Positions 4,703-52,489 of a DNA stretch of 64,000 nucleotides are shown piece after piece. Every line of letters starts with the position of its first letter. The stretch's first letter is position 1. Below the pieces are notes generated by a model, which saw only the letters and a list, made by a program, of their open reading frames with translations, had not been told where the DNA came from and ran no database searches. Origin of the DNA: Octopus vulgaris (Eukaryota); the NCBI GenBank assembly GCA_951406725.2, contig OX597822.1, positions 38,006,001-38,070,000 on the forward strand, in the 5' to 3' direction. Position numbers and translations under genes: made by a program.

Positions 4703-4761
4703 ATAATCACACACACACCACACACCTACACACACATATATATATACATACATACATACTT

Positions 4762-4806
<45 letters not shown>

Positions 4807-4814
4807 AATGATCC

Positions 4815-5490
4815 TTCCGCAGTGTACCGTGCATGTGTACTGACATCGCTCCTTTACTCATGTGAGACATGGACCCTTTACAAAAGTCATGTAAGGGTCC
4901 TTAAACGCTTTCATCAGAGATGTTTCAGACACATTCTGAATGTTGGCTGGACCTTAAAAAACCCAGATACACAGGTCCTGAGGGCAGCTGATATTTTGAA
5001 TATTGAGGCGATCGTGCACAAGCACCGGTTACGTTGGACTGGACACCTTATTAGAACGAAGTCTAGCAGGATCCCTGAGCAGATGCTATATGGGGAACTT
5101 GTGAATGGAAAGAGACACCGGCAGAAACCAAGGTTGCGATTTAAGGATTGTGTCAAGTCCTCATTAAAGGCCTGTGATATGCAGGAGACTGACTGATAGA
5201 ACAATGCCTGTCATTGCCACAGATGAAGGAAGCATGTTAAGGAGGGGTCGACACTTTTGAGAGGGCACGTATTCTACATGAAGAACTTAAGCGTGCTGCT
5301 CGAAAGCGGACTACTGGCGTAGTGAATGGGGAAAGCTTGGTCTGCAATGTTTACAGTTGTGCATGCTTGTTAAGAGCAGGGCTCATTATCCACCAACGGA
5401 GCCGCAAATACAAATATATAAGTTAGTCCTAGAGCGCACAATGTTCCTGAAGGTCAGCAATGGTCTTCGTATGTCATGAGTGGATGGCCA
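4815..5490 (+). pseudogene. 5'-truncated RTE-clade LINE, C-terminal part of the RT ORF
   Basis: ORF 4822-5196 YRACVLTSLLYSCETWTL...FHQRCFRHIL...RLRWTGHLIR...RIPEQMLYGEL...PRLRFKDCVKSSLK is typical of the post-RT region of RTE/BovB; after a stop there is a degenerate C2H2-like tail (VCNVYSCACLLRAGLIIHQR). Confidence 0.85.
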
Positions 5491-5868: not shown

Positions 5869-6210
5869 TAGACCTTCATCGAGTAATAAAAAACGTCCAT
5901 GCCAAATTTTATACACATTGATCTAGTGGTTTGGCCGTGCATAGAGAAAACACACACAGTGTATTTTATATATATATTCACAGACACGCCCACTGGCGTA
6001 TACGCATACACACGATCGCACACATATACACACATGCACGAAAAAATATATGTATACTTCCAATAGTAATAGAATAAAAATATATTTCTAAGATCTATGT
6101 ATATGACCGCGCACGCGTTGTGCTTATTATATCTACATACATACATATACATTTATGGATGTATCTCTTTCTCTCTTTTACTTGTTTCAGTCATTTGATG
6201 GCCATGCTGG

Positions 6211-6258
<48 letters not shown>

Positions 6259-6271
6259 CATTTATGGATGT

Positions 6272-6340
<69 letters not shown>

Positions 6341-6632
6341 TCCGTAATAATGAAGGGTGAAATTAATTAATTTGGAATAATTATCAATTACACCAAGTAG
6401 TCTTCGGCATGTAAAAGCCTCATTCGAGGAAAATTTAAGTAATACTAAGCAATAAAGGGTTTAGCAACGAATTGCCTTACCACAGACCGAATTTAGAAAT
6501 AGCAGTCAAAGAGTTATAGCTATTTCTTCTACTAAAAAGGAGATCTCAGTAAAAAACACAGCAATTGGAAGGCAGACACAAACAGGTAAGAGAGAATGAA
6601 TTGACGGCAATCTATCATACAATTTTAAGTTA

Positions 6633-6732
6633 TCTACGGACGCACGTTTCGAAATCAAGTTTTTAGAAAAGCATAAGAATTAAATATTAAATAATTCTAC
6701 GTTACCCAAACTTCTTTTCTCTTCAGCGTAGA
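6633..6732 (-). ncRNA. Type I hammerhead ribozyme motif
   Basis: Reverse complement of the 6827-6926 motif: tctacg-CTGAAGA-long insert-GAAAC-gtgc-GTC-cgtaga. Confidence 0.7.
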
Positions 6733-6826
6733 ATACTATAATCATAAATGATTATATATTGAATTTTGAGATACTCAAAATTCAATATCTCAAAATTCAA
6801 TATATAATCATTTATGATTATAGTAT

Positions 6827-6926
6827 TCTACGCTGAAGAGAAAAGAAGTTTGGGTAACGTAGAATTATTTAATATTTAATTCTTATGCTTTCCTAAAAAC
6901 TTGATTTCGAAACGTGCGTCCGTAGA
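6827..6926 (+). ncRNA. Type I hammerhead ribozyme motif
   Basis: Stem I tctacg(6827-32)/cgtaga(6921-26); CTGAAGA 6833-39; G...C closing a ~69-nt stem II region; GAAAC 6909-13, gtgc, GTC cleavage triplet 6918-20. Confidence 0.7.
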
Positions 6927-7115
6927 TAACTTAAAATTGTATGATAGATTGCCGTCAATTCATTCTCTCTTACCTGTTTGTGTCTGCCTTCCAATTGCTG
7001 TGTTTTTTACTGAGATCTCCCTTTTTTAGTAGAAGAAATAGCTATAACTCTTTGACTGCTATTTCTAAATTCGGTCTGTGGTAAGGCAATTCGTTGCTAA
7101 ACCCTTTATTGCTTA

Positions 7116-7199
<84 letters not shown>

Positions 7200-7416
7200 G
7201 GTACAGATATACATACACACACACACATATATATATATGTCATATATACAATATATATATATTCATAGAAATGTAATCATATATATATACACTATATATA
7301 TGCATATATATATATATAGATCTGTATATATAATATCAATATAATCCATACGCATGAATATTAATCCGTGAATTTGCTAGACATATTTATGAAGATATGC
7401 ATATACGTATGTATGA

Positions 7417-7458
<42 letters not shown>

Positions 7459-8064
7459 TTGCATGTCTGTTTGTATGTGCATGTGTGTGTTTGTGTGTGT
7501 GAGAGTGTGTGCATATGTGTATGTGTGTGTGCGCGCACGCGTGTGTGCATATGTAAAGGAAAGATAAAATGCTCCATTGTTCGAATGTTGAAAGCAAATT
7601 TATACGTATATATATTTAGATAATGTATGGATGGATGTAGTGGTGGATGGTGGATGTGTGTGTATATATATATACACATATACATGGAAACAGGGAGAGA
7701 ACGTTACAAAATTCTTCACGCGTGTTTTGGTGGCTATTGCAATGTACTTCTGGTAATGTGAATATCCAAGATTACGTAAGAAAGCTCTTAGTTAATCTGC
7801 TTTGTTAGTCAGCGAAACACGTGTAAAGACGCTACAAATAAATGCTTTCAGGGTTCCACATTATTATCCCCAGACATGATATGTGTATGTGGACCGTAAT
7901 TTTTATTACGCAAATAGACCGCTAGCATGACGCTTCGTTAGAACATCATTGATTATGTTCACAGGCTCTTTCACAACATTAATATGTGACATAAGCGGAT
8001 TGAAGGTTAAGCATTCGAACACCGTAACATACTTTACAAACATTATCTGCACACGTGTATGTGT

Positions 8065-8107
<43 letters not shown>

Positions 8108-8378
8108 TGTGTGTGTGTGTGTGTGTACATACATATATGTATACATATATATATATATATACATGAATATCTACATATATATAGATATATATATATAAAC
8201 ATATATATACATATGTGTATGTATATATATATATATACACACATATATGTATATATAAATATATATATATATATATCACGTGATCACATGACCGACCAGA
8301 CTATCGGACGTTGTTACACATCGCTGGTCACAATGTCCTTTACATCGTTTTGACCTTCGAATAAAGACACTCGGCTGG

Positions 8379-8438
<60 letters not shown>

Positions 8439-8771
8439 GAATACGTACATACATACATACGCGAGCGCGCACACACACTTTATCGATACCTCTATGAAAG
8501 GCTATCTCCAACCGCCACTCATCAGTGAATGACTTAACAAAGACTAATTCTAAATGTTTCTTTTGATTTGCAGAGTTTGTCTCACTGGCCATAGTGTGGC
8601 ATTCACGCGGTCGATCTTTCTGCCATTTAATCACACTTAATTCTTTATTGTATGACTTCTGGGCCTGAAACCTCCAATAATTGTTCAGCGTTCGCTTACA
8701 GATTAGCTACCACAAAAGAATTAAATTCAATATATACTCAATACATCTGGTTCCGTCATACATACACTAAA

Positions 8772-8854
<83 letters not shown>

Positions 8855-9140
8855 TACATACATACATATATATATTTATTTTTATTTATTTATTTATATA
8901 TTTATATATATTTCATTTCATTTCATTTGGGTTTGAGTCCATGCTCAGGCCAAGTCGAAGACTCCACCCTCATATATATATATACATATATGTGTATCTA
9001 TCTTTATATATGTGTGCGCGAACGCGCTCGTATCTATATCTGTGTAACTGTCTATCTGTCTATCTATTTAACTATCTATCTAGCTGGCTAGCTAACTGTG
9101 TATGTGTGTGTGTGCTTCTTTCTTTAACTTTTATCTTTTT

Positions 9141-9742
9141 AAACAACGAAGTGTCAGCACGAAGCAGTGTTTAGGTATGAGCAGAATTTAGGCTAGTTAA
9201 AATATGCTTGTCACATATTTCAACTGCTAAAAGACAAACACACTCCAGTTGCCGTGGAGAAAATATCTTTCTTATGGTAAAAAGGTGTGAAAACGCTTGG
9301 TTCGTTCAATGCCACCATCTATTAGGAATCCCAGATAAAGATGTTTCGAGTTTTTTGGCTCTTGTCAATGAGTTGTATCTAAGAGAGGCAACTCTGAACG
9401 AACTTCATAAAGTCGTAGCTTTGTATATAATTCAGTCAACACCGTCAACTGGTTTGCGTTAAGTAGATCGCCCGATCGAGGTAAACGACGAAGCGTTAGC
9501 GCGAAGCAGTGTTTAGATATGAGCAGAATTTCGGCTTGCTAAAAGGTACATCTCCTTCACAAGAGTCAAAAATCTCGAAACACCGATGTCTGGGATTCTT
9601 AATAGATGGTGACACTGAACGAACCGGGTGTTTTCAAACCTTTTTATCATAAGAGATTTTTTTTTTCTCCACGGTAACTGTTGTCTATTTGCCATTTAGC
9701 AGTTGAAATATGTGACAGACATATTTCCACTAGCCTAAATTT
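9141..9742. repeat. Composite direct plus inverted repeat element
   Basis: 9141-9203 is repeated directly at 9483-9544; 9184-9380 recurs as a diverged inverted copy at 9544-9742 (the ORFs 9208+ and 9695- translate to similar peptides). Confidence 0.75.
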
Positions 9743-9882
9743 GGATTTTATCTATTTTCTTTTCACATTACTATTATTTAATTATCTTTCATATTATTAT
9801 TATGAGCCTTTCATAGCTGGTTTGGAACAGTAGCTTTCTTAAATTCCATATCCGATGTTGCCACGCTTTCACAGTATTACTG

Positions 9883-9963
<81 letters not shown>

Positions 9964-10120
9964 CGCACATACACACATATTTATTTATATTTATGTATTA
10001 TGAAAAAATATGGGCTTGAACATCGCATAGCTGATAGATATGTTTCTATATTCGGTAAGAAATGATGTTAGAACATAAATGTTATCTATAGAGGCCCTTT
10101 ATAAGTGCAGCATGTATATA

Positions 10121-10173
<53 letters not shown>

Positions 10174-10181
10174 CATATATG

Positions 10182-10228
<47 letters not shown>

Positions 10229-10259
10229 GTATAACAACAACAACAACAACAATAATAAT

Positions 10260-10400
10260 AGCATCGAAATTACCTTAGGAATGAGAACCCAGGTTCAAAA
10301 TTTCTCCCAGGACACCTGAAGAAGGCTGGAGAGTATATCAGCCGAAGCGTTGTGTTAACAACTAACAAGATGAGGACAAATAAATATCCGTCATAATGTT
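10260..10400 (+). mobile_element. Penelope-like terminal fragment with degenerate minimal hammerhead
   Basis: acac-CTGAAGA-a-ggctg...cagcc-GAAgC-GTT-gtgt at 10312-10355; GAAAC is altered to GAAGC. Confidence 0.5.
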
Positions 10401-10401
10401 T

Positions 10402-10597
10402 CTTTCACTCTTTCTTCCTGTATTTCAAAGGGCAAGCCTTGTCACATTCTGTGTCACGCTGAATCTCCCCGAGAATTACGTTATGGGTACACATGTCTGT
10501 GGAGTGCTCAGCCACTTGCACGTTAATTTCACGAGCAGGCTTTTCCGTTGATTGGATCATCTGGAAACCTCGTCGTTGTAACCGACGGAGTGTCGTA
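10402..10597 (+). mobile_element. SINE family C, 3' part
   Basis: gccttgtcacattctgtgtcacgctgaatctccccgagaa...gtaaccgacggagt matches 12905-13080 (-) and 46355-46515 (+). Confidence 0.8.
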
Positions 10598-11404
10598 GTA
10601 ATATATATATTTTTACAATCCAGCCGTCCATTCTCACGGAATTTCGTCTATCTTTAAAACATGACCCTGAAGTGACTTATATATATAAGGGAACTGTTAT
10701 TATGTATGTATATCAGGAAATGTATATAAATCGAAACAATTTGTTGGCCTTTTATGTTTTTTTTTAATATATTATATTATGTTGTATTATATTCATAGTA
10801 TATCATGTAATATTATAATATAAATAAATTATTGGATGTCAGTAGTATCTTTCTATTTAATTTATCTTTATATAAATAACTTAACGCAGTACTACTCGCA
10901 AAAGATATCCATGTTTATTTCTATCTCATTTCAATAATTCCTAATGGTTTTGCTTCAAGCTTTGCTCCATTTTCTTCTAATGTTTTATTTGTCTTCTTTC
11001 AGGTAATCTTATTTTTCTAACCTCCACTGACACACTTCCCTTAGTGTCACTCACATTCTTCTTTATTTGTTTTTTCCCTCCTCAGTTTCCATCCTGTCTT
11101 TCTCTTTCTTCTCTCGCGCTCTCTCTCTTTCTCTCTCTCTCCCTCTCTCTCTCCCTCTCTCTCTCTCTCACTCACTCTTTGTCGCTCCCTTGCTCTCATT
11201 CTTTCACATTCTAGACGTCTGATATTTTATCACATTAGTTCACTTATTGTTCCTCTATAAATGCAGAATTCTTTGCTTTATCTCTTCTATCTTTTATTTT
11301 AACAATCTATTTGCATCATTGTCTCTCACACAAGCTAACTATTGACTATATCTAATTTTGTTTCTTTAGTTCTTTCTCTCAATCTCTTACACCCTCTCTT
11401 TTCC

Positions 11405-11436
<32 letters not shown>

Positions 11437-11437
11437 G

Positions 11438-11472
<35 letters not shown>

Positions 11473-11629
11473 CTATCTCTATCTCAAATAGTCTATTTAT
11501 CTACCTAATACACTTTTCTTTATAATACATTCTTTTTCTTTGTTTTTCACCTCTCTCATCACAGCCACTACTTTCTCCTTCCAGCAAAACACAAACAGAG
11601 AAACCAACCTCAAAAACTTGAACAAATTC

Positions 11630-12380
11630 AAATCAGTTCAAATATGTTTGAGAGATATATCAGGCTTTTCACTGCAGTTTGTCAGAGAGAAAAAGTTCTA
11701 ACTAAAGAACAATGGTGTCAAAGCACCACAGGCAGCTAAGAGCACTATCTATTCGAGTTATGGATTATTTCGAACTTTTTAGTTCTCTTTGCTTCTCAAT
11801 CAGGTCAGAGTTGCCGCACTTTGATATCTGGTGCTGAAGGGAATTAACGTGTTTGAAATGCATCCATCAGTCCAACAGAGAGCATTCTGACCCGACTTTA
11901 GTGTTTTGACACATTATTGTCTTAAGCAAGAACTATTTTCTCCATAACAACCTGCAGTGAAAAGTCTTTACATATCCATACACCTCCCAAACATACTTGA
12001 ACTGGCCTTAGTTTACCCTCTGCCACTATTTCGCGCATCTATTCAGGATGTCCAAGGTGTAATGCTTTTGCTATATTCCTCAATATCTAGTTGGTGCATC
12101 AAAGAACTAGCAGGGATTGCGTTGTATTAGCTGTAATCTTTTGCAGATGGCTGATGGTAGAGAAAAAAACCCCATCTAGATTACTTTTAAAAGCCTCAGG
12201 TAGAATTTTTTGCCACCTTCTGTAAATCTCTTTTGAGGCCGTTGTGTAGTTATGAACAAGTCAAACAGTTACTGAGTAAGTTCTTGATGCAAGTGTTTTA
12301 GGAAGGAAGTATTGAGATCTGGCACTACCTTACATAAATACCGGGGTGGACGCGTACATAAAAACCGGGGTTTATACCCT
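11630..12380 (-). mobile_element. Old DNA-transposon remnant, possibly pogo-like, with a diverged internal inverted duplication
   Basis: 11633-11735 is an imperfect reverse complement of 11897-12006; family assignment rests only on weak resemblance to an N-terminal HTH region and subterminal ccggggt repeats. Confidence 0.3.
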
Positions 12381-12904
12381 TTTCAAGGCGGTGCCCCATC
12401 ATGGCCGCAGTCCAATGACTGAAACAAGTAAAAGGTAAAAGTTTAAAGAGCATGTTTGGTAGTGAAAACATTTACTGTGAGAGACACAACAGTGATGTTA
12501 ATCCTCTGGAAGTCCCATATTTCCAACAGTTATCACATCATGGCATCCCAGGACTTATCTACCAACTGGACAGATTGCAAAAAGTATTCAAGAAAAAGAA
12601 AACAAATTACAGACAGAGGCCATAACCGCTGGGACTTGTGTATATTACATACTTTAGGGTCTTCACTTTAGAATGCTGGAGGAAGTATATACCCTATACT
12701 TGTTTCATTCATTGGACTGCAGCTATACTGGGGCACTGCTCTAAAGGGTTTCATCAAACAAATATTTTTAAGTGCAGTACCTTACATTACTCATTTGTTA
12801 CACTCTTTCTTAAAGTTGGGGACAAAATTTCCAAAAATGTTTCGTATGTATGTATGTATGTATGTATGTATGTATGTATGTATGTTTGTATGTATGTATC
12901 GTGG

Positions 12905-13283
12905 TACTCCGTTGGTTACGACGACGAAGGTTCCAGTTTATCCGATCAATGGAACGGCCTGCTCGTGAAATTAACGTGCAAGTGGCTGAGCACTCCACAG
13001 ACACGTGTGCCCTTAACATAGTTCTCGGGGAGATTCAGTGTAACACAGAGTGTGACAAAGCTGGCCCTTTGAAATACTGGTACAACAGAAACAGGAAGAA
13101 AGAGTGAGAGATAGTTGTGGTGAAAGAGTACAGCAGGGTTCACCACCCACTGCCGGAGTCTCGTGGAGATTCAGATGCTTTCGCTCAATAAACACTCAAA
13201 GCGCCCGGTCTGGTAATCGAAACCGTGATCCTAGGACCGTGAGTCCGATGCCCTAACCACTGGGCCATTGCGCCTCGCCTCCA
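12905..13283 (-). mobile_element. tRNA-derived SINE, family C, near full length
   Basis: Minus strand ggcgcaatggcccagtggttagggcatcggactcacggtcctaggatcacggtttcgattacc tRNA-like head followed by family body. Confidence 0.85.
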
Positions 13284-13420
13284 AATCTATGTATGTATAT
13301 ATGTATATATGTGTGTATGTATATTTATATATATATCTGTATATATATATATATGTATGTATATATATATATATATGTATGTATATATATATATATATAT
13401 ATATGTATACATATATATAA

Positions 13421-13451
<31 letters not shown>

Positions 13452-13595
13452 TATACATATATATACACACACACATATATATATATATATATTTGTGTGT
13501 GTGTGGGTGTGTGTATCTTTTATCGAACCACTGACTGTGAAACTGTACGGGGGATGGTAAACACAGACAAACACACAACATATACATGCATACAT

Positions 13596-13656
<61 letters not shown>

Positions 13657-14134
13657 TTGGAACTGAACTCGAAACCACATGGTTGCAAAGCGAGTTTCTT
13701 CACCACACAGCCATGCTTGTTGCCACTTTGCGATTGTATTTAGAACAGCAGTTCTCAGTAATTATGAGTCCATATAACACTCTACAAGGAACATGAAACT
13801 CTTGTTGCACTTCGTACAGAAAGTTGAAAGGAAAAAAAAATGTTGGATTTTTTTTCTTTTAATTAGAAAATATATATCCTTGTATATAACGAAATTATAA
13901 TTCACATGTTTTTCAAGAGATTCCAGCATTAATATGGCTTTTTTAAAACATGGAATTATATATTTAAAATCCGCTGTGTTCCGTTTGAAATCGCTGGTCT
14001 AGCGAAATATATATCTTCAGATATACAAGAATTATGAAGGGAGTCAAAGTCTTGTGCTATTTTCCCTGTTCGGAATCAAGGTAAAACATTTCGGTGGGAA
14101 TCCTATTTTCACATTGGAAGGCATAGAATATTCT

Positions 14135-14695
14135 TTTCTTCTCCGATCTAGGCACGAGGTCCGAAATTTTTAGATCGACCCTAGTACGCAACTGGTACTT
14201 AATTTATCGACCCCGAAAGGATGAAAGGTAAAGTCGACGCCGGCAGAATTTGAACTCAGAACATAAAGACAGACGAAATACCGCTAAGCATTTCGCCCGA
14301 TGTGCTAACGTTTCTTATTTCTTTATTGCCCACAAGGAGCTAAACGTAGAGGAGACAAACAAGGACAGACAAAGGTATTAAGTCGATTACATCGACCCCA
14401 GTACGCTACTGGTACTTAATTTATTGACTCCGAAAGAATGAAAGGCAAAGTTGATCTCGGCAGAATTTGAACTCAGAACAAGGGCCTAAACACAGAGAGG
14501 ACAGACAATGACAGACAAACAGATTAAGTCGATTATATCGACCCCAGTGCGTAACTGGTACTTATTTAATCGACCCCGAAAGGATGAAAGGCAAAGTCGA
14601 CCTCGGCGGAATTTGAACTCAGAACGTAACGGCAGCCGAAATACCGCTAAGCATTCCGACCGGCGTGTTAACGTTTCTGCCAGCTCGCCGCCTTG
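14135..14695 (-). mobile_element. SINE family B (Meta-domain-like core), three nested or tandem cores
   Basis: atcgaccc..gtacgcaactggtactt...gaaaggatgaaagg.aaagtcgac.tcggc.gaatttgaactcagaac occurs at ~14175, ~14391 and ~14537; head ggcggcgagctggcagaaacgtta on the minus strand at ~14692. Confidence 0.8.
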
Positions 14696-15223
14696 AAGAC
14701 ATGGAATATTGTAGAGTTGAACGAAGTATTATCGTCATTCAATCTGTTGTATATGCGGGGCGGAAGGGATCGAAATTTTCTTGTAGGACATAGACACTGT
14801 CATTTGTTCTCATATTTCGTATTACTTTGGTGTTATCTATATAACTGCCGAGTGAGACAGATTTTATTTTTGTGTTTGACATTATGACAAACAAGAGATA
14901 ACTCAGAACGATGCCTTGAGTGAGTAGGGACAGCACTTATAGTCACATACTTGTTGGATAGGGCTACGTTCGCCGCCACCAATTACGTTAAGAGTTCAAA
15001 TCCGGCTGAGGGAAACTTTGTTTTAATTTTTTCTGGATCAATAAAATAAAGTACCAGTTAAGCACTGGGTTAATGATATCGAGGAATCCTATCCTCTAAA
15101 AATTGCTGGCCCTGTGCCAATATTTGAAACTATTATTATTTCTATTTAAGATGTTGCACAGCATCCAATATCGTGATGTTGTTGATTGAAGACATTGTGT
15201 CTACGGGGGATTTGTACTGTCTG

Positions 15224-15490
15224 TCAGGTCACAACAAGGACCTCAGACAGTACTTTACGTAATATGCGTGCAGTTCCATGTAATGTCGATTTTTGCAATA
15301 CACCTAGATTGTAGAGTATTTCTAAAGTTTCCAGACGTTCTCCGGCTGGATCTATTGAACTCAATGCTCCGATGACAACAGGGACATCCTTTATGTTTGA
15401 CTCTCGTAGCTGCGACATCTTAGCGATCTAATTTCTCAGGTCTCCATATTTATCAATCTTTTCTCTTTCTTTCCCGATAATATGTTGATT
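15224..15490 (-). pseudogene. R4/Dong-like non-LTR retrotransposon 3' fragment (RLE tail)
   Basis: KEREKIDKYGDLR...VPVVIGALSSI...LQKSTLHGTARILRKVL; adjoins a (TTA)n array. Confidence 0.75.
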
Positions 15491-15510
15491 TCATAATTAT
15501 TATTATCATT

Positions 15511-15589
<79 letters not shown>

Positions 15590-15806
15590 GGAGGAGAATC
15601 CCTTTGGTCACGAATGACAATGGAATTGCACCTAGAAAGTTACCCCCACCCCCTGAGGCACAAGTCCGGGCAAGTTTGTTTGTGGAAGGCTAGCAGTCGT
15701 ACATGCATACCAGCCTCCCCTCTCCACACTACTGATGTTATCCAAGGGAAAGGCAAAGGCCGATGCAGCTTGGCACCAATGTTGTTGTTGTTATTGTTGC
15801 TTTTAT

Positions 15807-16080
15807 TGAGTGCGAGAGTAGTGCATGCCATCAAAGTGACACTGGGGTAGAAATATACGAAGCCCAATATACCCATCATGACTACCCATCTAATAATGGT
15901 ACACCAGGCACATGCATCACAACCATATGTGCGTGACATGGTGATCCCGTATCAAGATAAACAGTGCAAGACTTTGCCGGTGGGGCCCAGTTAGAATTTT
16001 CTTCAGGCTGAGTAGCTCAAAAGGTCATTAGATAAGGGTTGTTTAAGGATGTTGAACGAAACACCTGTGTTTCCAGTGAT
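15807..16080. repeat. Dispersed repeat embedded in triplet arrays; longer copy at 17091-17600
   Basis: ttgagtg..agagtagtgcatgccatcaaagt...gggcccagttagaatt...gttgaacgaaacacct is present twice, each time between TTA/TTG/TAG arrays. Confidence 0.8.
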
Positions 16081-16090
16081 GTTGTTGTTG

Positions 16091-16175
<85 letters not shown>

Positions 16176-16269
16176 CATCATCATTATATGAAAACTCACA
16201 GCTTATTATGCTGGGTATGCTGGAAAGGGTCAGCTGTCCACAGCCAGCAGACAAAGGTGACACTTGTTT

Positions 16270-16895
16270 ACTGATCATGCTTCAAGAACCCTTCGGAGAA
16301 CTCTTTCAGTTCCAAGCAATGATGATTTTTATGGGTGTTCTATTTTTATACTTGTTCCAGACTTTTTCAGTCGCTTTTGTAGTTGGGCACTGGTACGTTC
16401 ACTTTCTTTATTGTCCACAGTTTGCTTATTTCCCACTTCAGATTATCATAGCTGTTCAGTTTTTCTTCTTCTTTCTCCTTGAACATGTTGTCATCGGGAC
16501 AAGCTATGTCGACTATCATACAAGTTGTTTTTTTGTCCACCATAACAATGTCAAGTTTCCGATGTCTAATTTGATGGTTACACCGAATCATTGCATCCAA
16601 CAGTATTTTGCAATCCTCATCCTCATTAACTCCTTCTGGAAGTTAGTCATACCAAGTCTTTGATCTTTCTAGGTCATAATTTCCACAAAGTTCCCAATGG
16701 CTCATTGTCATATCACCGTTGGGTATTCCGTTGTGTCAATTCCGAATTTTTACTAACAATGTGCCATGCCGTTTCACTCCTCTCACACATTCTACATTTG
16801 TCACTCTCGGTTTGTTTTCTCAATTTTGCACTTCACATAGTTTGTCCGCAAAGCTTATTCTTCTTTTGCACATATAAGTGCCTCTGTTCTTCAAG
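16270..16895 (-). pseudogene. R4/Dong-like non-LTR retrotransposon fragment (CCHC knuckle plus restriction-like endonuclease)
   Basis: DKCRMCERSETAWHIVS knuckle remnant and ORF 16367-16600 HRKLDIVMVDKKTTCMIVDIACPDDNMFKEKEEEKLNSYDNLKWEISKLW (PD..D-type RLE). Confidence 0.8.
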
Positions 16896-16974
<79 letters not shown>

Positions 16975-16975
16975 C

Positions 16976-17075
<100 letters not shown>

Positions 17076-17090
17076 CTGTTGTTGTTGTTA

Positions 17091-17600
17091 TTGAGTGACA
17101 GAGTAGTGCATGCCATCAAAGTAACGCTGGAGTAAAATATACAAAACCCAGAATACCCATCATGACTACCCGTCTGATAAGGGTACACTAGGCACATGCA
17201 TCACAACCATATGTGCGCGACATGATGATCTCACATCAAGATAAACAGTGCATGACCTTGCAGATGGGGCCCAGTTAGAATTATCTGCAGGTCAAGTATC
17301 CCATCCCGCTTGAAAGGTCCCTGAATAAGGGTTGTTTAAGGAAGTTGAACGAAACACCTATGTTTCCAGAGATGAATTACTCAATACCCTAAGAACCCCT
17401 CTCAACACATGGCTATGATATTCCCCAACTACTTCTGCTCGTGATCAGAGATGCACATATTCTCAGACACCAAGAAACATGCTTAAGTGGTTAAGGTCAA
17501 ACAACTGACAAGCATATCTGTGATATTGAGCAGAATATTTGTTGTAGCCCATCTTTTATACCAAGACAAAGAATGTACATGATAACACTTCCAATCAGTT
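17091..17600. repeat. Longer copy of the triplet-array-associated repeat
   Basis: Collinear with 15807-16080; flanked by (TAG)n on both sides. Confidence 0.8.
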
Positions 17601-17665
<65 letters not shown>

Positions 17666-17773
17666 TTATATTTTACCTCTCAGAGCCCTCGATCATACTT
17701 GTTCGGTTAATTCCGTGAGAGGGGACAGCAACTTGTTGTCTAAGATCTCATAGGGTCCCTTTCAACAAATTGC

Positions 17774-17810
<37 letters not shown>

Positions 17811-18035
17811 TAATTTAAAGAACCGGAATAAATACCGCTAAGCATTTTGTCCAACTCTTACGATGAATGCATATTCCCTTAATACCACTGTCACATGTGA
17901 TCCACCCTGATTATAAATATCCCCCAAACTTATTTCAATTGTGTCATAATTTTCTGTATCTTCGATGCAATTATTAAAAGAGTATATTCATTTAATTCAC
18001 ATCAAAAGAAAATTCCACGCTTTGCATCGCAAAAT

Positions 18036-18345
18036 TTCGAAAACGCCTGCGCTAACTTCTTGGGAAATACGAAGGTTCTAAACTATTCTGAGATAGAAGG
18101 TGACTAGCTTAAGCCTTTACCAAACAATGTAGAGCAAGATGTCATTAAAAGTTCATTTCTTGAGTTGTCGTCTGATGTGATTAGAGACAAACTTAGGAAG
18201 CGTTTTCAACTGAAAACTTCCGCCGTGGAAAAGCGTTACCAAAATAAGCAGAGCTCTAGTATACATGTTGAATATTACTGGACTTTAAAGAAGGACATGC
18301 CTAGGGAAAAGTACTGAAGAAAATCAAACAAGGATAATTCTTAAA
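18036..18345 (+). pseudogene. Chapaev3-like DNA transposase C-terminal remnant
   Basis: Frameshifted NFLGNTKVLNYSE...KMSLKVHFL...KRFQLKTSAVEKRYQNK...YYWTLKKD resembles the recalled NFLGN...MSLKIHFL...ERFHQDI..MEKRYQG...YCWTLKRD motif. Confidence 0.65.
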
Positions 18346-19291
18346 GTACAATAATATCGATTATTCATACTTCAATAAATGTGTCACGATATGGGGGTCT
18401 TCAAAATTTAAATTACATGTTCATAAAATTCAAACATATAACAAATTTATATAGATTCAGAACAAAGACATACAGAATAATAATGTAAGAAATAGGTTCC
18501 GTTCGTTTCCCAGGAGAGATAATATTTAAAATGTTAGTATGGGTAGGAACTGCATAACTATCTTATCTGCCTTGAGACTGAGGTACTCCTTGACAGGCCG
18601 ATAGAATGTATAATCCTGGCTGATAACGTTATGTTTGTTGATTTGAGGTTCAAAGTTATGATGTCATCTTGGTGCAGTAGGTGGCATGTTTGTACAGTTT
18701 ACTTCAAACGCGAGGTTCGATCCCTATAAGAAATAACACAAATTTTTACACGCCTACTGTAACATACATATACATAATATATATATATGTGTATGTATGT
18801 GTGTGTGTGTGTGTCTGTATAAGAGCGTAGGCTCGAAATGTAAAAGACTTTTTCTATTCCTGAGCGTTATACTAATACATCTGTTTGTTTTGTACACCAC
18901 CTGTCTTCGTCTTTTGTTTTTTTCGTAAACTTTCCCTATATATATAAGTACAGCACACACACACGAACACACAAACGATTGGCTTACTCGCAGTTTCCGT
19001 CTGAGGAAGCTTCGGCCAGCCCGGTGCTACAGTACAAGATAATTGGCCAAAGTCTCACGCTAAACACGAAACCATGTAACTGCATAAGGATTAAAAAACA
19101 CACACTCAAAATACACACCCATGTGTTAGTGTATACATATATATTATATACGCATACGTATATATACAAATATATATGTGTGGATATATATATAAATTTA
19201 TATATACCTATATATGTGCGACCGGTTGTGTCTGTGTGAGTGTACAAATAAACATACATTCATACACGCATATATACATTCTTACATGCAC

Positions 19292-19324
<33 letters not shown>

Positions 19325-19422
19325 TACACACACATACACACACACACACACATACACACACACACATACACACACACATATGTATTTATAAAGATATATG
19401 TATGTGTGTGTGTGTATGTATG

Positions 19423-19470
<48 letters not shown>

Positions 19471-19830
19471 CATACACACATACACGGAGAGAGAGAGGGA
19501 TAGATAGACAGATAGATTGATAGATAGATACAGAAGACAGACACAGAGATTGATTGATTGATTGACTGATTGATTGAATGCTATACATGAATGTTGACAA
19601 TCTGAACTTATTAAAACATACATGCTAATTTACTGCTCATGTACAGCATATACACATTCTACATACACCAATATATATATATCAATGCATACAAGGATAT
19701 ACATGTATATGCAAGTATGTATGTATGTATATATATGTATATGTACAGGTAAATGTACGTGTATTCATGTGTACAAATATACATATATATATAAATATAT
19801 ATGCATGTATCTATTTATCTATCTATCCCC

Positions 19831-19926
<96 letters not shown>

Positions 19927-19967
19927 ATATATATATATTCTACCTTGACTTTTTCCATATTCATATA

Positions 19968-20034
<67 letters not shown>

Positions 20035-20040
20035 CATGTA

Positions 20041-20091
<51 letters not shown>

Positions 20092-20153
20092 GTGTGTGTG
20101 TATGTATTCATATATATATATATAATATATATATATATATTTATATATATGTA

Positions 20154-20213
<60 letters not shown>

Positions 20214-20586
20214 TGTAGCATCTAATTATGCTTTTACGAGTAAATGCATATCTGTAACACACATGGCGATAAACAGCTATAAGAAAATATCTTATTACTA
20301 GATTGGCATATTCATGCCAGTTTCGTTTCCAGCATGCTCTTCTAAACAATATATTTTTCGCATAATTATTTTTCTTTAATCAGATATGCTACTAAATTGC
20401 TCTGATTCGAATTATACTGTATATGCAGGATAATGTTTTATATATTGTCTTGGTTATGTAACACATACACAATATATGATTTGTGTTTTTTTAAGATGTA
20501 ATTCAAAATATTTTTTTTTATGATTTAAAGAAAACTATACATACGTACCAATACAGACAAGTAACATGCACACCCATGTGCACTGT

Positions 20587-20700
<114 letters not shown>

Positions 20701-20958
20701 ACATATATGTACATATACATATATATGTACACACTCATATATACATATATATATAATATATATATATATTTATACATACATATATATTATACATATATAC
20801 ATATATATATCATATATATGTATGTATGCATGTATGTATTATGTATACAGTATATACATCATACGTAGATTCATAACGATATGTTTGTGTGTATGAACGT
20901 ATGCACAATTATATATATATATGTGTGTGTGTGTGTATGATGATGTATATATACATAC

Positions 20959-21009
<51 letters not shown>

Positions 21010-21037
21010 AATATACACATACACACACACACACATA

Positions 21038-21140
<103 letters not shown>

Positions 21141-21141
21141 A

Positions 21142-21490
21142 GGTGCGACCACCTTGGGCAAGTGTCTTCTGCTATAGCATCTGGCTGACGATATCTTGTT
21201 AGTGAATTTGGTAGAGGGAAACTGAAAGAAGCCCGTCGTATATATGTATATATGTATATACCTATAAGTGTGTTTTTGTTTCTGTGTTTGTAACCCCGCA
21301 CCCACCCTATCACCGCTGACAACCGGTGCAGGTGTGTTTATGTCGCCGTATCTTAGCGGTTCGGACATGAGAACCGATAGAATAAGTTCTAGGCTTTTAA
21401 AAACAATTAGTCATAGGGTCGATTTGCTCGACTAAAAGCCTTCAAGTCGATGCTACAGCATGGCTACAGTCAGATGACTGTAACAAAAGT
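21142..21490 (+). mobile_element. SINE family A, 5'-truncated
   Basis: caccttgggcaagtgtcttct...gaaactgaaagaagcccgtcg...accgatagaataagt...cagtcagatgactg. Confidence 0.8.
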
Positions 21491-21649
21491 GGAACAGCGG
21501 CATCAAACTCCATCATTGACCAAAGGACACATATCAAAGGAGGTTTCAAATAATAGTACATCACATGCAATGGTGGTGCTCCAGCATGACCACAGCTGTG
21601 AAGCTGAAACATTTTAAAGATTTAAATATATATATATATGTGTGTATTC

Positions 21650-22110
<461 letters not shown>

Positions 22111-22117
22111 ATATACA

Positions 22118-22293
<176 letters not shown>

Positions 22294-22788
22294 TATAAAT
22301 ATATATATACATCTATGTATGTATTTCATTTCTACACTCAATTATATAGTATATTTGGCTTATGCTGTGTAATTGACCGTAGAAATAATAAGAAAAAGAA
22401 CCTTTTGGATATACAGTAAGTATAGTAATAATAATCTAGCAAAGCGAACCCAGGATTTACCCATCGGTTGAGTTGCACCTTAAGTAATCCTAGGTGTTCC
22501 TGACAACTCGATACTTTGATGTGGTTAGACTGGACCCGGATTATAACTGGGTGTTTGGTCATACATACACATGCACACACATGTATATATGTATATATAT
22601 ATATGTGTATGTATACATATATATAGATGTATATATATATATACATATATACATGTATATATACAAGTATACATATATATATATATGTATGTGTGTGTGT
22701 GTGTGTGTATACATATTATAATATATATATATATATATATTTGTGTGTGTGTGTATATATATGTGTGTGTATGTGTGTATATAAATGC

Positions 22789-22825
<37 letters not shown>

Positions 22826-23158
22826 GACTAATTTGTGAGTTGTACAAACAAGTATTTTAGACATTGCATACTATAGACTAGAATGAATAAATATTCCTAC
22901 GATTTCCTAATTTTAAGCTTCAAGATCATAATATATCAATTATACATGCCACAGTCTATTTGTGTATGTGTGTGTGAGTGAGTGTCTGTGTGTGGGAGTG
23001 AGTATGCGCGCGTGTGTGCTCGTGATTTTCAGCAGTGAACTCATTATCAGTGTTATATATATATATATATATATTACATTATATGTATTATGCAATATGA
23101 AATGTAGTATATATATATTTTGAAAATTAAAATCATACACATATGACTGGTAGTACCC

Positions 23159-23209
<51 letters not shown>

Positions 23210-23646
23210 CATACAAACGTACATATATAGATATATACATATATAATATATATATATGTAATATATATATACATATTTGAGCATATATGATGTAGTTCAT
23301 TCAGTAAATGTTGCATATATATATATAGATCAAAGCACATTATGTTGGTATGTTAACCGTTTCACATCTAGGATATGCTAGCCCAGTTGTTTTGAGTTAC
23401 TTTGGTAAGTCGTCGAAGGAGTATATACTACCAGTTAATAAGGTATTGTATGTATGTAAGTATATTAAGTGTGTATGTATGCATATTTGTATGTATGTAT
23501 GCCTACATAAATCTATCTAGCTATATATGTATAAATATATATATATATATATATATATGATATAGTTAATGTATGTAAACGTATATATATATATATGTGT
23601 ATATGTATATATATGTGTGTCGGGGGGTATATATGTATATGTTATA

Positions 23647-23690
<44 letters not shown>

Positions 23691-23730
23691 GAACACAAAT
23701 ACAAACATTGATATATATATTGTTGTCTCC

Positions 23731-23844
<114 letters not shown>

Positions 23845-24057
23845 TCTGACGTATATAAGGATTGTGCTAAATTACAAGAAAATATAAATTTTAAATTATA
23901 TATTTAAAAATTACAAATATTAATGACAAATTTTAAGTCATAAACAGGATAAAAAGTAGTTTCTTAAATATACAGAAGTATTCACTACAAAACAATTTAG
24001 CTATATACATGTCTTTTTAAAAACATTATATACAGTTCATATATACATATATACTGC

Positions 24058-24157
<100 letters not shown>

Positions 24158-24395
24158 ATGCATATATATATAATACATATATATATATACATATAAATAT
24201 ATATATATATATATATATACATATATATATGTATATATACATACATATATATACGTATATATATACATATATTTACACACACATATATATATATCTATAT
24301 ATATTTACATATATATGCATATATATCTACAAATATATACACTTATACTAAGATATACATATATACGTACATATATATATATACACATGTATGTA

Positions 24396-24523
<128 letters not shown>

Positions 24524-24558
24524 TATACATATATAGATATATACATATATATATACAC

Positions 24559-24594
<36 letters not shown>

Positions 24595-24612
24595 ATAGGT
24601 ATATATATACAC

Positions 24613-24655
<43 letters not shown>

Positions 24656-25049
24656 AAACGAAACCGACATGAATGCTCCATTCTAAGAATTAATTATATT
24701 TGTACACTACTATAAAGGTTTCAAATTTTAGCACAAGGTAAGTAATTTGGGCGGTGAGGGGTAATACATTGGCATAAGATCATCTGTTCAATTAATAATA
24801 ATAAATCTATAAATTTGATATTGATGGCTACGAGAATAGAAGTCTGTAGAAATGGATCACGTTTATGAAATAGAAACCTTTATTCATATTTTATTTTAAA
24901 TATATAATTTGTTGAGCTGCGAAGTAGGTAGAAATCTGGTCCTCGCCGAGTATTGAACGGCCGAATTGATGAATGCCAGTGTATTATATAAATGAAAATT
25001 ATTTATGTGTGTGTGTGTTTATGTGTTTATATATATATATATACATATA

Positions 25050-25350
25050 TCACTGTGATCACCGTGACCGACCAGATGTTGCTACACATCGCTGGTCACA
25101 ATGCGTTTCGCATTGTTTTTTTTTAGCCGTTAAATGACGCCACCCCGCTGGCTAAGCGAGCAGGCCAATAGAAGAAAGAGTAAGAGAAAGTTGTGGTGAA
25201 AGAGTACAGCAGGGATCGCTACCCCCCCCCCCCCCTTGCCGGAGCCTCGTGTTTTCGCTCAATAAACACTCACAACGCCCGGTCTGGGAATCGAAACCGC
25301 GATCCTACGACCGCGAGTTCGCTGCTCTAACCACTGAGCCATTGCACCTC

Positions 25351-25352
<2 letters not shown>
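25050..25352 (-). mobile_element. tRNA-derived SINE, family C variant with an alternative tail
   Basis: Head ggaggtgcaatggctcagtggttagagcagcgaactcgcggtcgtaggatcgcggtttcgattccc; the tail segment is also at 8278-8380 and, inverted, at 61940-62050. Confidence 0.85.
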
Positions 25353-25442
<90 letters not shown>

Positions 25443-25527
25443 TATAGTTATAAATATATATATATACATATTTGCACTCAGAAACATATATATAATGCTC
25501 CCCAAAACACATATAGAACATGATATA

Positions 25528-25564
<37 letters not shown>

Positions 25565-25673
25565 TAGACATGTATGCATACATGCGTACTTGCACACATG
25601 CACGCGCGCGCGCGCACGCACACACACACTCAAAAGGCATGCGTTCACACACTAATGTGTGCTTGCATGTATG

Positions 25674-25707
<34 letters not shown>

Positions 25708-25877
25708 TGTATACATGTATGTATGTGTGTACATATGTATGCATGCATGCGTGTATATACATAATATAACTGTCCCGTATTCAGCCTCCGTCTTATTTCA
25801 GCCGAAAGGTTTTCTTTTTAATCCAATGTACTCGCTAATATGCAGAGCGTTATCTACTTCGAATCCAAGCGTTAAAT

Positions 25878-25935
<58 letters not shown>

Positions 25936-26002
25936 AAAAATATATACACACACATACATATATATATATATATACACGCACGCACGCACACACGCACACA
26001 GA

Positions 26003-46832: not shown

Positions 46833-47284
46833 CGTATGTATATATATATATATGTGTGTGTGTGTGTATGTGTGTGAGTAAACACACATACACACATAAA
46901 TATATACATATATTATACATGTGTGTGTACATGTATACATATATATATATATACGTGTATATGTATATATATATATATATGTATATGTATGTGTATGTAT
47001 ATATTTATATATATTTTATTTATCTATTTATTTATATATTGTTATTTATTTAAATATGTCATTATTTACCAGTACACTTTTTATCCTGCTTACTGCTGTC
47101 ATCCAGTCTTTTTGTTCTTCCCTTTCTTTTACTCTCCACCACTTTCTTCTTCTTCCTTTCTTTCTTTCTTTCTCTCCACCACTTGCTTTCTTTCTTTCTA
47201 CTTCCTTCTCTAAATACGTATAAATTACCTCGCCACGCGTCTGGCTTCACATATTTGATCTCTGTAACAGAATGCAACAAAGTA

Positions 47285-47380
47285 TTCCCCTGATGATCCA
47301 TTGCAGTTAGGCGGACAAATGCACATCAATCATCGAATGCTGAGCTCCAAATAACTGCAATGGAGAAACGTACGTAGGAA
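47285..47380 (+). ncRNA. Type I hammerhead ribozyme motif with 13-bp perfect stem II
   Basis: ttccc-CTGATGA(47290-96)-tccattgcagtta...taactgcaatgga-GAAAC-gtac-GTA-ggaa; stem III ACGTACGT is a palindrome. Confidence 0.8.
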
Positions 47381-47590
47381 CAGAATATTTATATTGGTGT
47401 TTGTCTTATTTCCACAGAGTATTTTCAGTATATCATAACTAGTAACACTGCTAAGTACAGTGGTCGACTAACCGCTATACTGGAAGCCAACTGGATAAGG
47501 ACAATCTACGTGGAGCTCTAACTCATACAGTAGTAGTCATATATGTAACTCAACAAACAAAACATGCATACATTCATATGTATGTGTATG

Positions 47591-49717: not shown

Positions 49718-50045
49718 ATACACACACACACATATATATATATACATATATAAATATATATACATATACATGTGTATGCATGTATGTATACATAAGTACG
49801 TATGTGTGTTTATGGTTATATTGATAGTATATGGTCCAAATGGATCCAAATAGATCTAAATGGGCCTGTTATGTATTTCATCAACTGAGCCAAGGTATCT
49901 GACGAATATGTGTGTGTATGTGTGTGTGTGTGTGTGGATGTATATATTTATATGTATGTATGTATGTATCTCTCTATCTATCAATATATATATATATATT
50001 CATATGCATATATACATATGTGTGTGCATATGCAGATATACATAC

Positions 50046-50117
<72 letters not shown>

Positions 50118-50393
50118 TAATAAGGGTGAGAGAATTAGATACTAATTTAATAGTATATCCATTCAACACCAAGTGGCCTAGTGCTCCGAGAAACCTGGAT
50201 TATTATAATATTTTATAATATATTATAATATTTTTACAAAATAAATATAAGAGAGTGGTCACTATATGGCTCACTCTAGCACCAGTTAATCCAAAAGGTT
50301 TCAACCACTAAAAATACATGTTTCCCATGAAAGTCAGTACGATTGTTAGCTCACACGGACAGGGCAAATAAAAAATAACAAAAATACAGATTA

Positions 50394-50475
50394 TTTTGGG
50401 ACAATTGTTTCGCTATTAATGAATTAAATGTAATTTTACTTACAAAAAAATCCACTTGTAGCTCGTCAGCCAAAA
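50394..50475 (-). ncRNA. Type I hammerhead ribozyme motif
   Basis: ttttgg-CTGACGA-gcta...tagc-GAAAC-aatt-GTC-ccaaaa on the minus strand. Confidence 0.8.
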
Positions 50476-50929
50476 CTATCTGGATGAAATCCACTCAATC
50501 ACACGCCAGATTTTACCATAACGATAAATACGCGTGTGGTTCAATTGATTACATCCGACGTTATAATTCAAATGCCCCAACTAACAGCGCGCCAAACTTT
50601 CACGGAAAACAAATACAGCATTTAGAAATAAATGCAGCATAATTATAATTAATTAATAAGGGTGAGAGAATTAGATACTAATTTAATAGTATATCCATTC
50701 AACACCAAGTGGCCTAGTGCTCCGAGAAACCTGGATTATTATAATATTTTATAATATATTATAATATTTTTACAAAATAAATATAAGAGAGTGGTCACTA
50801 TATGGCTCACTCTAGCACCAGTTAATCCAAAAGGTTTCAACCACTAAAAATACATGTTTCCCATGAAAGTCAGTACGATTGTTAGCTCACACGGACAGGG
50901 CAAATAAAAAATAACAAAAATACAGATTA

Positions 50930-51011
50930 TTTTGGGACAATTGTTTCGCTATTAATGAATTAAATGTAATTTTACTTACAAAAAAATCCACTTGTAGCTC
51001 GTCAGCCAAAA
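50930..51011 (-). ncRNA. Type I hammerhead ribozyme motif (tandem copy)
   Basis: Same motif, 536 nt from the 50394-50475 copy. Confidence 0.8.
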
Positions 51012-51256
51012 CTATCTGGATGAAATCCACTCAATCACACGCCAGATTTTACCATAACGATAAATACGCGTGTGGTTCAATTGATTACATCCGACGTTAT
51101 AATTCAAATGCCGCTGTATTTGTTTTCCGTGAAAGTTTGGCGCGCTGTTAGTTGGGGCATTTGAATTATAACGTCGGATGTAATCAATTGAACCACACGC
51201 GTATTTATCGTTATGGTAAAATCTGGCGTGTGATTGAGTGGATTTCATCCAGATAG

Positions 51257-51338
51257 TTTTGGCTGACGAGCTACAAGTGGATTTTTTTGTAAGTAAACTT
51301 AAATTTAATTCATTAATAGCGAAACAATTGTCCCAAAA
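51257..51338 (+). ncRNA. Type I hammerhead ribozyme motif (inverted copy)
   Basis: ttttgg 51257-62, CTGACGA 51263-69, gcta/tagc stem II with canonical G-C, GAAAC 51321-25, palindromic ACAATTGT stem III, GTC 51330-32, ccaaaa 51333-38. Confidence 0.82.
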
Positions 51339-51487
51339 TAATCTGTATTTTTGTTATTTTTTATTTGCCCTGTCCGTGTGAGCTAACAATCGTACTGACT
51401 TTCATGGGAAACATGTATTTTTAGTGGTTGAAACCTTTTGGATTAACTGGTGCTAGAGTGAGCCATATAGTGACCACTCTCTTATAT

Positions 51488-51545
<58 letters not shown>

Positions 51546-52489
51546 GTATGTAATTATGTATGTATGTATGCATGCAAGTACGTGCGTAAATATATGGAAG
51601 ACCGCTCTGAATTCCTGACCTGTTAAGCCGATGATGATGATAGTGCTGATGACGATGAGACGAAGGGGATTAAACGCCACTGCAACAGGATAACCTTCAC
51701 CGTGATGAAGCTCTTTGGTGTTTAATCTGGTGCTTAATGCTGTAACAAGGTAGAATAGTTAGCGCACCGGGCAAAATGCTTAGTAGCGTTTCGTCCGTCT
51801 TTACATTCGGTGTTCAAATTCTGCCGAGGTCGACTCTGCCTTTCATCCCCTCGGGGTCGATGAAATGAAGTACCATTCAGATACTGGGGTCGATATAATC
51901 GACTATATCCTCTCTCTAAAAAAGTTGCTGGCCTTTTGTCAAAATTTGAAAGTTTTATTAGACTGACATTTAGAACTTAAATTAATACGGAAGGTTTTGA
52001 GTTAGGCCACTTTAAAATAAACCTATATTATAGAACAAGGGACTCTGTCAGGCATGTTGTATCAGAAGGGCTAACGAAACAAGAGTAAAGTCGACTGACC
52101 TGGAATTTGATCTCAGGCTGTTGTTGGGGTATAATGAAATATCGATTTGTAATCTAACCACAAGACCACACATTTTTATGAGGGCAGGTACAGGTAATTA
52201 TATTAACTTCAGTACTTCACTGCTGTTTTATTTTATCGACCCCCCAAAAGGATGAAAGATAAAGTTAACTCCGGTGGTATTTGAACTCCCAACTTAAAGG
52301 GACGTAAATAGTTATTGTAAACCAGTCCGGCGTTTTGCCATACTTCAAAAGAACTAAAAGTCAACGGATAGATCTCGAACCAGTAATATATCATTTGCTA
52401 TAACATCATGTTACCGGTTGTACAAAAGAAAGCTTGTTGCTTCATTGTGTTAGCGGATCATTGCATCACTATGTTACTGGTTATATAAT

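Follow-up and report, generated by a model that had tools for sequence, protein, structure and literature searches.

Positions 50112-51494 of the window, by which we mean the whole 64,000-nt stretch of Octopus vulgaris DNA that was analysed, hold a repeat with hammerhead ribozyme motifs on both strands, set between two (TA)n tracts. The question raised by this locus is what kind of element it is, and by which machinery it was copied into its place. The locus is a single copy of a young, protein-free mobile repeat with 536-base units that carry a hammerhead motif, and it belongs to a family with hundreds of loci. Its kind is known: the element is a non-LTR retrozyme, which is an established type of non-autonomous Penelope-like element (PLE). 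The overall reading that we consider probable is that of a recent insertion of a protein-free hammerhead repeat with PLE ends, in which a Hydra-clade enzyme likely wrote the repeat into (TA)n, probably with a circle as template.

Anatomy of the insertion

The insertion is composed of a full unit, a truncated unit and an inverted arm (Table 1), and its arms, joined head to head, stop at two fixed sites separated by about 123 nt. A sequence-only reading of the window had described a tandem unit of 536 nt; this holds for the first unit, but the second has lost its 5' end. The near identity of the copies noted there is borne out, since the direct copies differ over their common 465 nt only at the microsatellite boundary and the inverted arm has 2 mismatches in 382 nt. 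Two private substitutions are carried by the inverted arm of this locus. An open-reading-frame check of the 536-nt unit found no long frame, in agreement with the same reading, and no ORF with the reverse transcriptase (RT) and GIY-YIG endonuclease that mark an autonomous PLE is present in the element. Taking the commonest letter at each position, 172 of 534 columns are G or C (32%), under the 50% that bounds the retrozyme class.

Table 1. Features of the element and of its flanks, in window coordinates
Feature	Position	Strand	Remark
Left (TA)n target microsatellite	50058..50114	none
Full 536-nt unit	50112..50647	-	3' end is the long end and meets (TA)n; boundary ambiguous by ~3 nt
Tail, ~123-126 nt	50112..50237	-	between short and long 3' ends; on a single arm only
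Second unit, 5'-truncated	50648..51112	-	unit positions 72-536; 465/536 nt
Inverted arm	51113..51494	+	unit positions 29-410; head to head; short end, without tail
Right (TA)n target microsatellite	51495..51533	none
Type I hammerhead motif 1	50393..50476	-	C17 at 50400; predicted cut 50400/50399
Type I hammerhead motif 2	50929..51012	-	C17 at 50936; predicted cut 50936/50935
Type I hammerhead motif 3	51256..51339	+	C17 at 51332; predicted cut 51332/51333; 2 substitutions, stem II insert
Predicted cut-to-cut monomer, 536 nt	50400..50935	-

In a predicted read-through RNA, 50774-51112 would pair with 51156-51494 in the adjacent arm. The double-stranded RNA had been put at about 340 bp or more; the computed duplex has 339 bp and a 43-nt loop. 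The inverted arm had been regarded solely as a source of such RNA, and the duplex is indeed predicted, but a second arm of this sort is what a PLE-type insertion normally has. In this model, monomer release and the read-through duplex are in conflict at this locus: the duplex would cover the upstream ribozyme at 50929-51012, so that a monomer would require a transcript starting inside 51112-51013.

The hammerhead motifs and their fold

Each of the three motifs has a 7-bp stem I, a CUGACGA core and the elements GAAAC-AAUU-GUC, with a stem II made of a 4-bp basal part and a long structured insert. Stem III has 2 bp and lies within the perfect palindrome ACAATTGT. This palindrome had been pointed out in the sequence-only reading together with the two minus-strand hammerheads, whose predicted cuts lie 536 nt apart, and the third copy on the plus strand, and all three statements hold. 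Among 121 full units of the family, the palindromic stem III is intact in every one, 114 match the strict core pattern, and 119 have a size of 530-538 nt.

Rfam gave no match at gathering score in the 64,000-nt window, and no hammerhead among its 26 weak matches in 50000-51600; the ribozyme call thus rests on the motif, the fold and covariation. As for the fold, the 91-nt ribozyme region is more stable than all of 200 shuffles (z = -3.9, for an MFE structure that differs from the active fold), and the monomer more than all of 100 (z = -6.95). The active fold of the monomer is calculated at -16.4 kcal/mol versus -22.0 kcal/mol for the inactive MFE alternative, a cost of 5.6 kcal/mol, and two ACAATTGT palindromes are predicted to form an 8-bp duplex of -6.4 kcal/mol. 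On this modelling, cleavage of the paired hammerheads as a dimer is plausible.

Covariation was assessed in 8 related units from about four lineages, four of the units being relatives at 70-79% or similar. In these 8 aligned units, 5 of the 7 pairs of stem I have changed on both sides, and stem I pairs at 92.8% versus 32-47% for slid partners; in a shuffle test, the number of pairs changed on both sides was reached by 150 of 500 shuffles. De novo consensus folding returned stems I and II along with further helices throughout the unit, and 31 of its 131 pairs have changed on both sides. The most diverged copies carry mismatches in stem II or in the core.

The design is close to that of the PLE hammerheads in PMC4209133, which are likewise of type I with an enlarged helix II and a 2-bp helix III with a palindromic loop, and differs from it in the 7-bp helix I of the octopus unit. 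According to that paper, PLE hammerheads with a short palindromic helix III were predicted to work as dimers, cleavage by metazoan PLE hammerheads was weak, and hammerhead pairs on opposite strands were noted 100-700 bp apart.

A dispersed family with two fixed ends

The genome assembly (G000; 2.8 Gb in 227 contigs) was searched with patterns for the ribozyme and the tail and with the unit itself. The ribozyme pattern has 1,051 exact matches genome-wide and none in the reversed control; the tail pattern has 3,130 (control 12), some of them in relatives whose units measure about 493 and 506 nt. The DNA search gave at least 157 matches in the best 40 of 921 candidates, the top ones at 99-100% on many contigs. 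Forty loci were taken, consisting of 26 listed matches of the ribozyme pattern, 9 of the tail pattern and 5 long arrays from the DNA search; with the diverged relatives L180 and L181 left out, 38 family loci were examined.

Twenty-two of the 38 loci are two-armed, and all 22 have one arm that ends at about unit position 410 and another that ends at about 536. If the ends were independent and at even odds, such an outcome would have a probability of 0.5^22 = 2e-7. The rule also holds in 16/16 two-armed loci among the 26 picked by the ribozyme pattern alone. The 16 single-armed loci comprise 10 long-ended and 6 short-ended ones. In an earlier set of 19 loci, chosen for full-length matches, the long-plus-short layout had been recognised in 14 by motif and in a further one by BLAST, the other 4 being single-armed.

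Measured from the predicted cut, the two fixed 3' ends lie at +162 and +285, one per arm. The 60 5' ends are scattered throughout the unit; a single one falls no more than 10 nt from the cut, where chance would give 2.4. Arms reach a length of 6.8 kb, and several head-to-head junctions overlap by 6-10 shared bases. At least two ribozymes stand on the same strand in 27 of the 38 loci, as do the two on the minus strand here. The family loci are dispersed over many contigs and stand between unique flanks; their 5' truncation is random, and their 3' ends are fixed and lie in (TA)n.

A different hammerhead element with the same layout was found in the window at 6335-7116. Its head-to-head arms are 98% alike and flanked by (TA)n, and a 107-nt tail is present on one arm only. 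This tail aligns with that of the 50112-51494 element (z 5.3-5.8, 0/200 shuffles), which marks it as a distant relative with the same end signal.

Retrozyme class and Penelope-like ends

Animal non-LTR retrozymes and their circles were described in PMC7229834, and a preprint (bioRxiv 10.64898/2026.07.22.740005) has argued that animal retrozymes are non-autonomous PLEs. The octopus family is like those in both sources in being built of non-coding units in tandem, every one with a single type I hammerhead, in its low GC and in its dispersed arrays, and PLEs were proposed there as the mobilisers. The assignment to a retrozyme-like class made from the sequence alone is confirmed by these traits, by the young age and dispersal of the family and by its conserved RNA structure. 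The 536-nt unit is above the 170-400 nt of PMC7229834 and inside the 51-972 bp of the preprint. The plant LTR retrozyme, with type III hammerheads in its LTRs and a 4-bp TSD, is a different thing from the type I tandem units seen here. The head-to-head arms with two fixed 3' ends are not described in the available text of either source, the word 'inverted' occurring 0 times in the main text of PMC7229834.

These arms are, however, at home in another literature. A PLE is laid out as partial tandems together with a copy that is inverted and 5'-truncated, and only one of its ends bears a tail (PMC8557442, PMC3846280); the Hydra clade of PLEs targets (TA)n (PMC8557442). The octopus element has all of this in common with the endonuclease-bearing (EN+) Hydra-clade PLEs, along with the 5' truncation and the hammerhead, and is unlike them in having no ORF. 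The tail also differs: about 123 nt versus the 30-40 bp published for PLEs, and exactly one in every two-armed octopus locus examined (22/22), whereas it is optional in the PLE literature as far as PMC8557442 reports. Non-autonomous Chlamys elements such as MRC1 in that paper also form multicopy head-to-tail insertions, but their 3' end resembles an autonomous family and hammerheads are mostly absent from them.

Several intact PLE families are found in the octopus genome itself. At least five are of Hydra type (L128-L147, L281-L300, L190-L219), each with its own hammerhead, and several of these have long intact ORFs of 711 to about 1,090 aa. The Hydra-type assignment was made from protein motifs: the 711-aa family carries RWK, DKT, CxCX5C, CxxC and CxH, and the 899-aa family has RWL, DKT, CxxC and CxH and lacks CxCX5C. 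In both families a long end is matched with a short one in (TA)n, in 12/12 two-armed insertions of the 899-aa family (19 insertions) and in 5/5 complete two-armed insertions of the 711-aa family (20 loci). The tails measure 155, 70, 88 and 119 nt in four Hydra-type families (88 and 119 being based on 2 and 6 ends), 38 nt in a Neptune-like family and 123 nt in the retrozyme. Based on the one-long-one-short ends and the same layout in Hydra-type PLEs, we conclude that the element is a non-LTR retrozyme likely moved by a Hydra-clade enzyme; that it is a non-autonomous element mobilised by a PLE of one kind or another we hold to be very likely.

Circle or uncut transcript as template

The insertion could have arisen as follows. 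The array would be transcribed, and two hammerheads would pair via their palindromic stem III and cut out a monomer of about 535 nt, which a host ligase would close into a circle. A PLE protein, namely a Hydra-clade reverse transcriptase/endonuclease acting in trans, would nick both strands of (TA)n; the short site and the long site would each give rise to one cDNA, both cDNAs would run round the template until each stopped at a random point, and the two would be joined head to head, often via a few shared bases. PMC11167929 places the tail between two internal start sites of the RT and shows that each target strand is nicked and then extended; in the one PLE tested there, insertion did not need ribozyme cleavage, and no reads ended at the cut.

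The circle is, in our judgement, probably the usual template. It competes with a view in which the same PLE-mobilised element is copied from an uncut multimeric transcript, or from several RNAs by template jumping, with a ribozyme that is weak or acts later and no need for a circle. We regard this as rather unlikely. The PAc protein takes unprocessed RNA in vitro (PMC11167929), and 8/9 Xenopus retrozyme dimers remained uncleaved in vitro according to the preprint. The 5' ends are not at the cut, which excludes cut linear RNA as the usual template; this lack of enrichment counts in favour of the uncut transcript, but it fits a circle equally. Arrays made of several haplotypes (L183, L153, L171) and the two arms of L184, which differ by 8.6 substitutions on average, also speak for it. 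The nearest unit belongs to the same array for 82 of 114 units and not strictly so for the other 32, and neither these 32 nor the mosaic arrays are explained by a single monomer circle. Twelve arrays were also inspected for the periodicity expected of a dimeric circle; it was not found in clean form, L183 being partly alternating.

Against the uncut transcript stand the covariation of stem I and the palindrome that is intact in all full units, and the uniform arrays. L160 has 11 full units and no substitution between them, and one variant is common to 10 consecutive units of one array and is seen in only 3 other places; the ten 533-nt units with this variant lie at G000:C10:92164480-92169298. 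A linear template alone would presumably be unable to lengthen an array. The long arms, of up to 6.8 kb, and the 82 units that are nearest to a unit of their own array also count for a circle.

Contigs of four public runs cover 50290-50825 in 30/30 bins each and those of two bridge the cut site, but such contigs cannot tell a circle from uncut RNA or DNA, and the run types are three guessed to be RNA and one of uncertain kind. T>C differences (plus strand) in these contigs looked like A-to-I editing of the ribozyme strand. At 50346 this was rejected, as the same variant exists in 13 genomic copies. At 50512-50513, T>C (A>G on the ribozyme strand) occurs in three presumed-RNA runs and is absent from the fourth run and from the assembly; the contigs concerned carry 5-6 other differences, so editing or a diverged copy may be the source. 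A>G makes up 0/5 of the array-fixed variants and 3/41 of the unit-private ones, and with no excess among the former, edited templates are not supported.

The partner enzyme

The partner of the retrozyme is likely a Hydra-clade PLE. Its 123-nt tail is within the Hydra range and nearest to that of a family with an ORF of about 980 aa, whose ribozyme is also the most similar to that of the retrozyme by eye. The (TA)n target and the hammerhead are as in Hydra; they are also present in a Neptune-like family, and hence are not diagnostic of a Hydra origin. The sequence comparisons gave no link of their own. Downstream of the cut, no significant alignment to five Hydra-type families was obtained (z -0.7 to 0.8, the second family being scored with its ORF included). 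Similarity of the pLTR to an autonomous Hydra family, as a derivative would have, was not found in the five families; others may be unsampled. The supplement of PMC8557442 includes a Hydra family from Octopus bimaculoides, and three short unit motifs had no relevant match in that supplement.

It is improbable that the retrozyme was moved by a different enzyme, whether the Neptune-like PLE, a PLE family outside those sampled, or a LINE. What can be said for this is that a 781-aa Neptune-like family, intact in many copies, also ends in (TA)n, and that there is no sequence link to Hydra families, the best 71-150 of 6,000-26,000 candidates having been scored in the protein searches for a partner. 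Yet the Neptune-like tail is 38 nt versus the 123 nt of the retrozyme, and one-sided tails are not known from LINEs in the available text of PMC8557442. The 781-aa family was also rejected as a partner on account of its different ends. One of its copies (L091, G000:C16:20833500-20843400) has an intact 781-aa ORF and a hammerhead-like motif with UUGAUAA instead of CUGANGA.

Two apparent physical links to autonomous families are most likely side-by-side or one-off joins. In L070/L098 an RT fragment is joined to the 3' half of a relative; this is a single event, as the second copy has 98%-alike flanks. In L188/L220 a relative's tail stands just before a Hydra ORF, which had made that family a candidate partner; its other 20 loci carry their own tail and 0/20 match the unit, so L188/L220 is read as a nested insertion in a shared (TA)n. 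Four further leaders likewise failed to align significantly.

Going one step further than a Hydra-clade partner, Hydra-clade proteins may integrate by a coupled two-strand reaction, with a short and a long start 70-155 nt apart on a structured RNA, and the retrozyme may be a minimal circular parasite that keeps this structure and the ribozyme. We put this forward tentatively, as a possible though doubtful account. If it were true, the 535-nt RNA would be a ready substrate on which to test rolling-circle reverse transcription by a telomerase-related enzyme.

Improbable alternatives: spread at the DNA level and assembly artefact

A satellite or other DNA-level repeat, spread by recombination and with the hammerhead as a relic, would explain head-to-tail arrays, and local amplification by unequal crossover, which is discussed in the preprint, may explain part of the array lengths. 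As an account of the family it is highly improbable, given that the loci are dispersed between unique flanks, with 5' ends lost at random and 3' ends that are fixed in (TA)n, and given the compensatory changes in RNA helices. That the duplication and inversion are an assembly artefact, which the sequence-only reading had named as one outcome that would overturn it and which the microsatellite flanks might suggest, is hardly credible in view of the many genome matches with an empty control, the compensatory changes of stem I in diverged relatives, the 22 other two-armed loci that have the layout but not the breakpoints of this one, the two private substitutions on the inverted arm, and the contigs of four public runs that join unit end to unit start.

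Relation to earlier work and other features of the window

The retrozyme class is already known, and mobilisation of non-LTR retrozymes by PLEs has been argued from co-occurrence and pLTR similarity (the preprint and PMC7229834). The preprint makes the link through pLTR sequence, whereas in the octopus family it is made through insertion anatomy. What is added here is the strict long-plus-short end rule common with Hydra-type PLEs, which ties the family to PLE integration by mechanism and not by sequence: a PLE-specific footprint is seen in young copies, with tails three times the published length. Our literature search, which covered few subscription papers, found no cephalopod retrozyme and no long Hydra tails; the supplement of PMC7229834 may list cephalopods. 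The family offers a small defined RNA together with candidate intact enzymes from the same genome, and could serve the questions of whether retrozyme circles act as template and of how the inverted structures of PLEs originate.

Three smaller features are worth recording. At unit positions of about 50-90 (window 51135-51175) there is a GC-rich TTTGGCGCG word followed by TTTGAA, kept only partly in relatives; the two presumably resemble E2F and CHR promoter sites. An open frame in the window at 4657-5193 (+) has an end that resembles a C-terminal fragment of a LINE reverse transcriptase. At 47282-47384 (+) the window holds a third, lone motif that looks like a hammerhead; its stem II is 13 bp long, and its stem III is short and palindromic.
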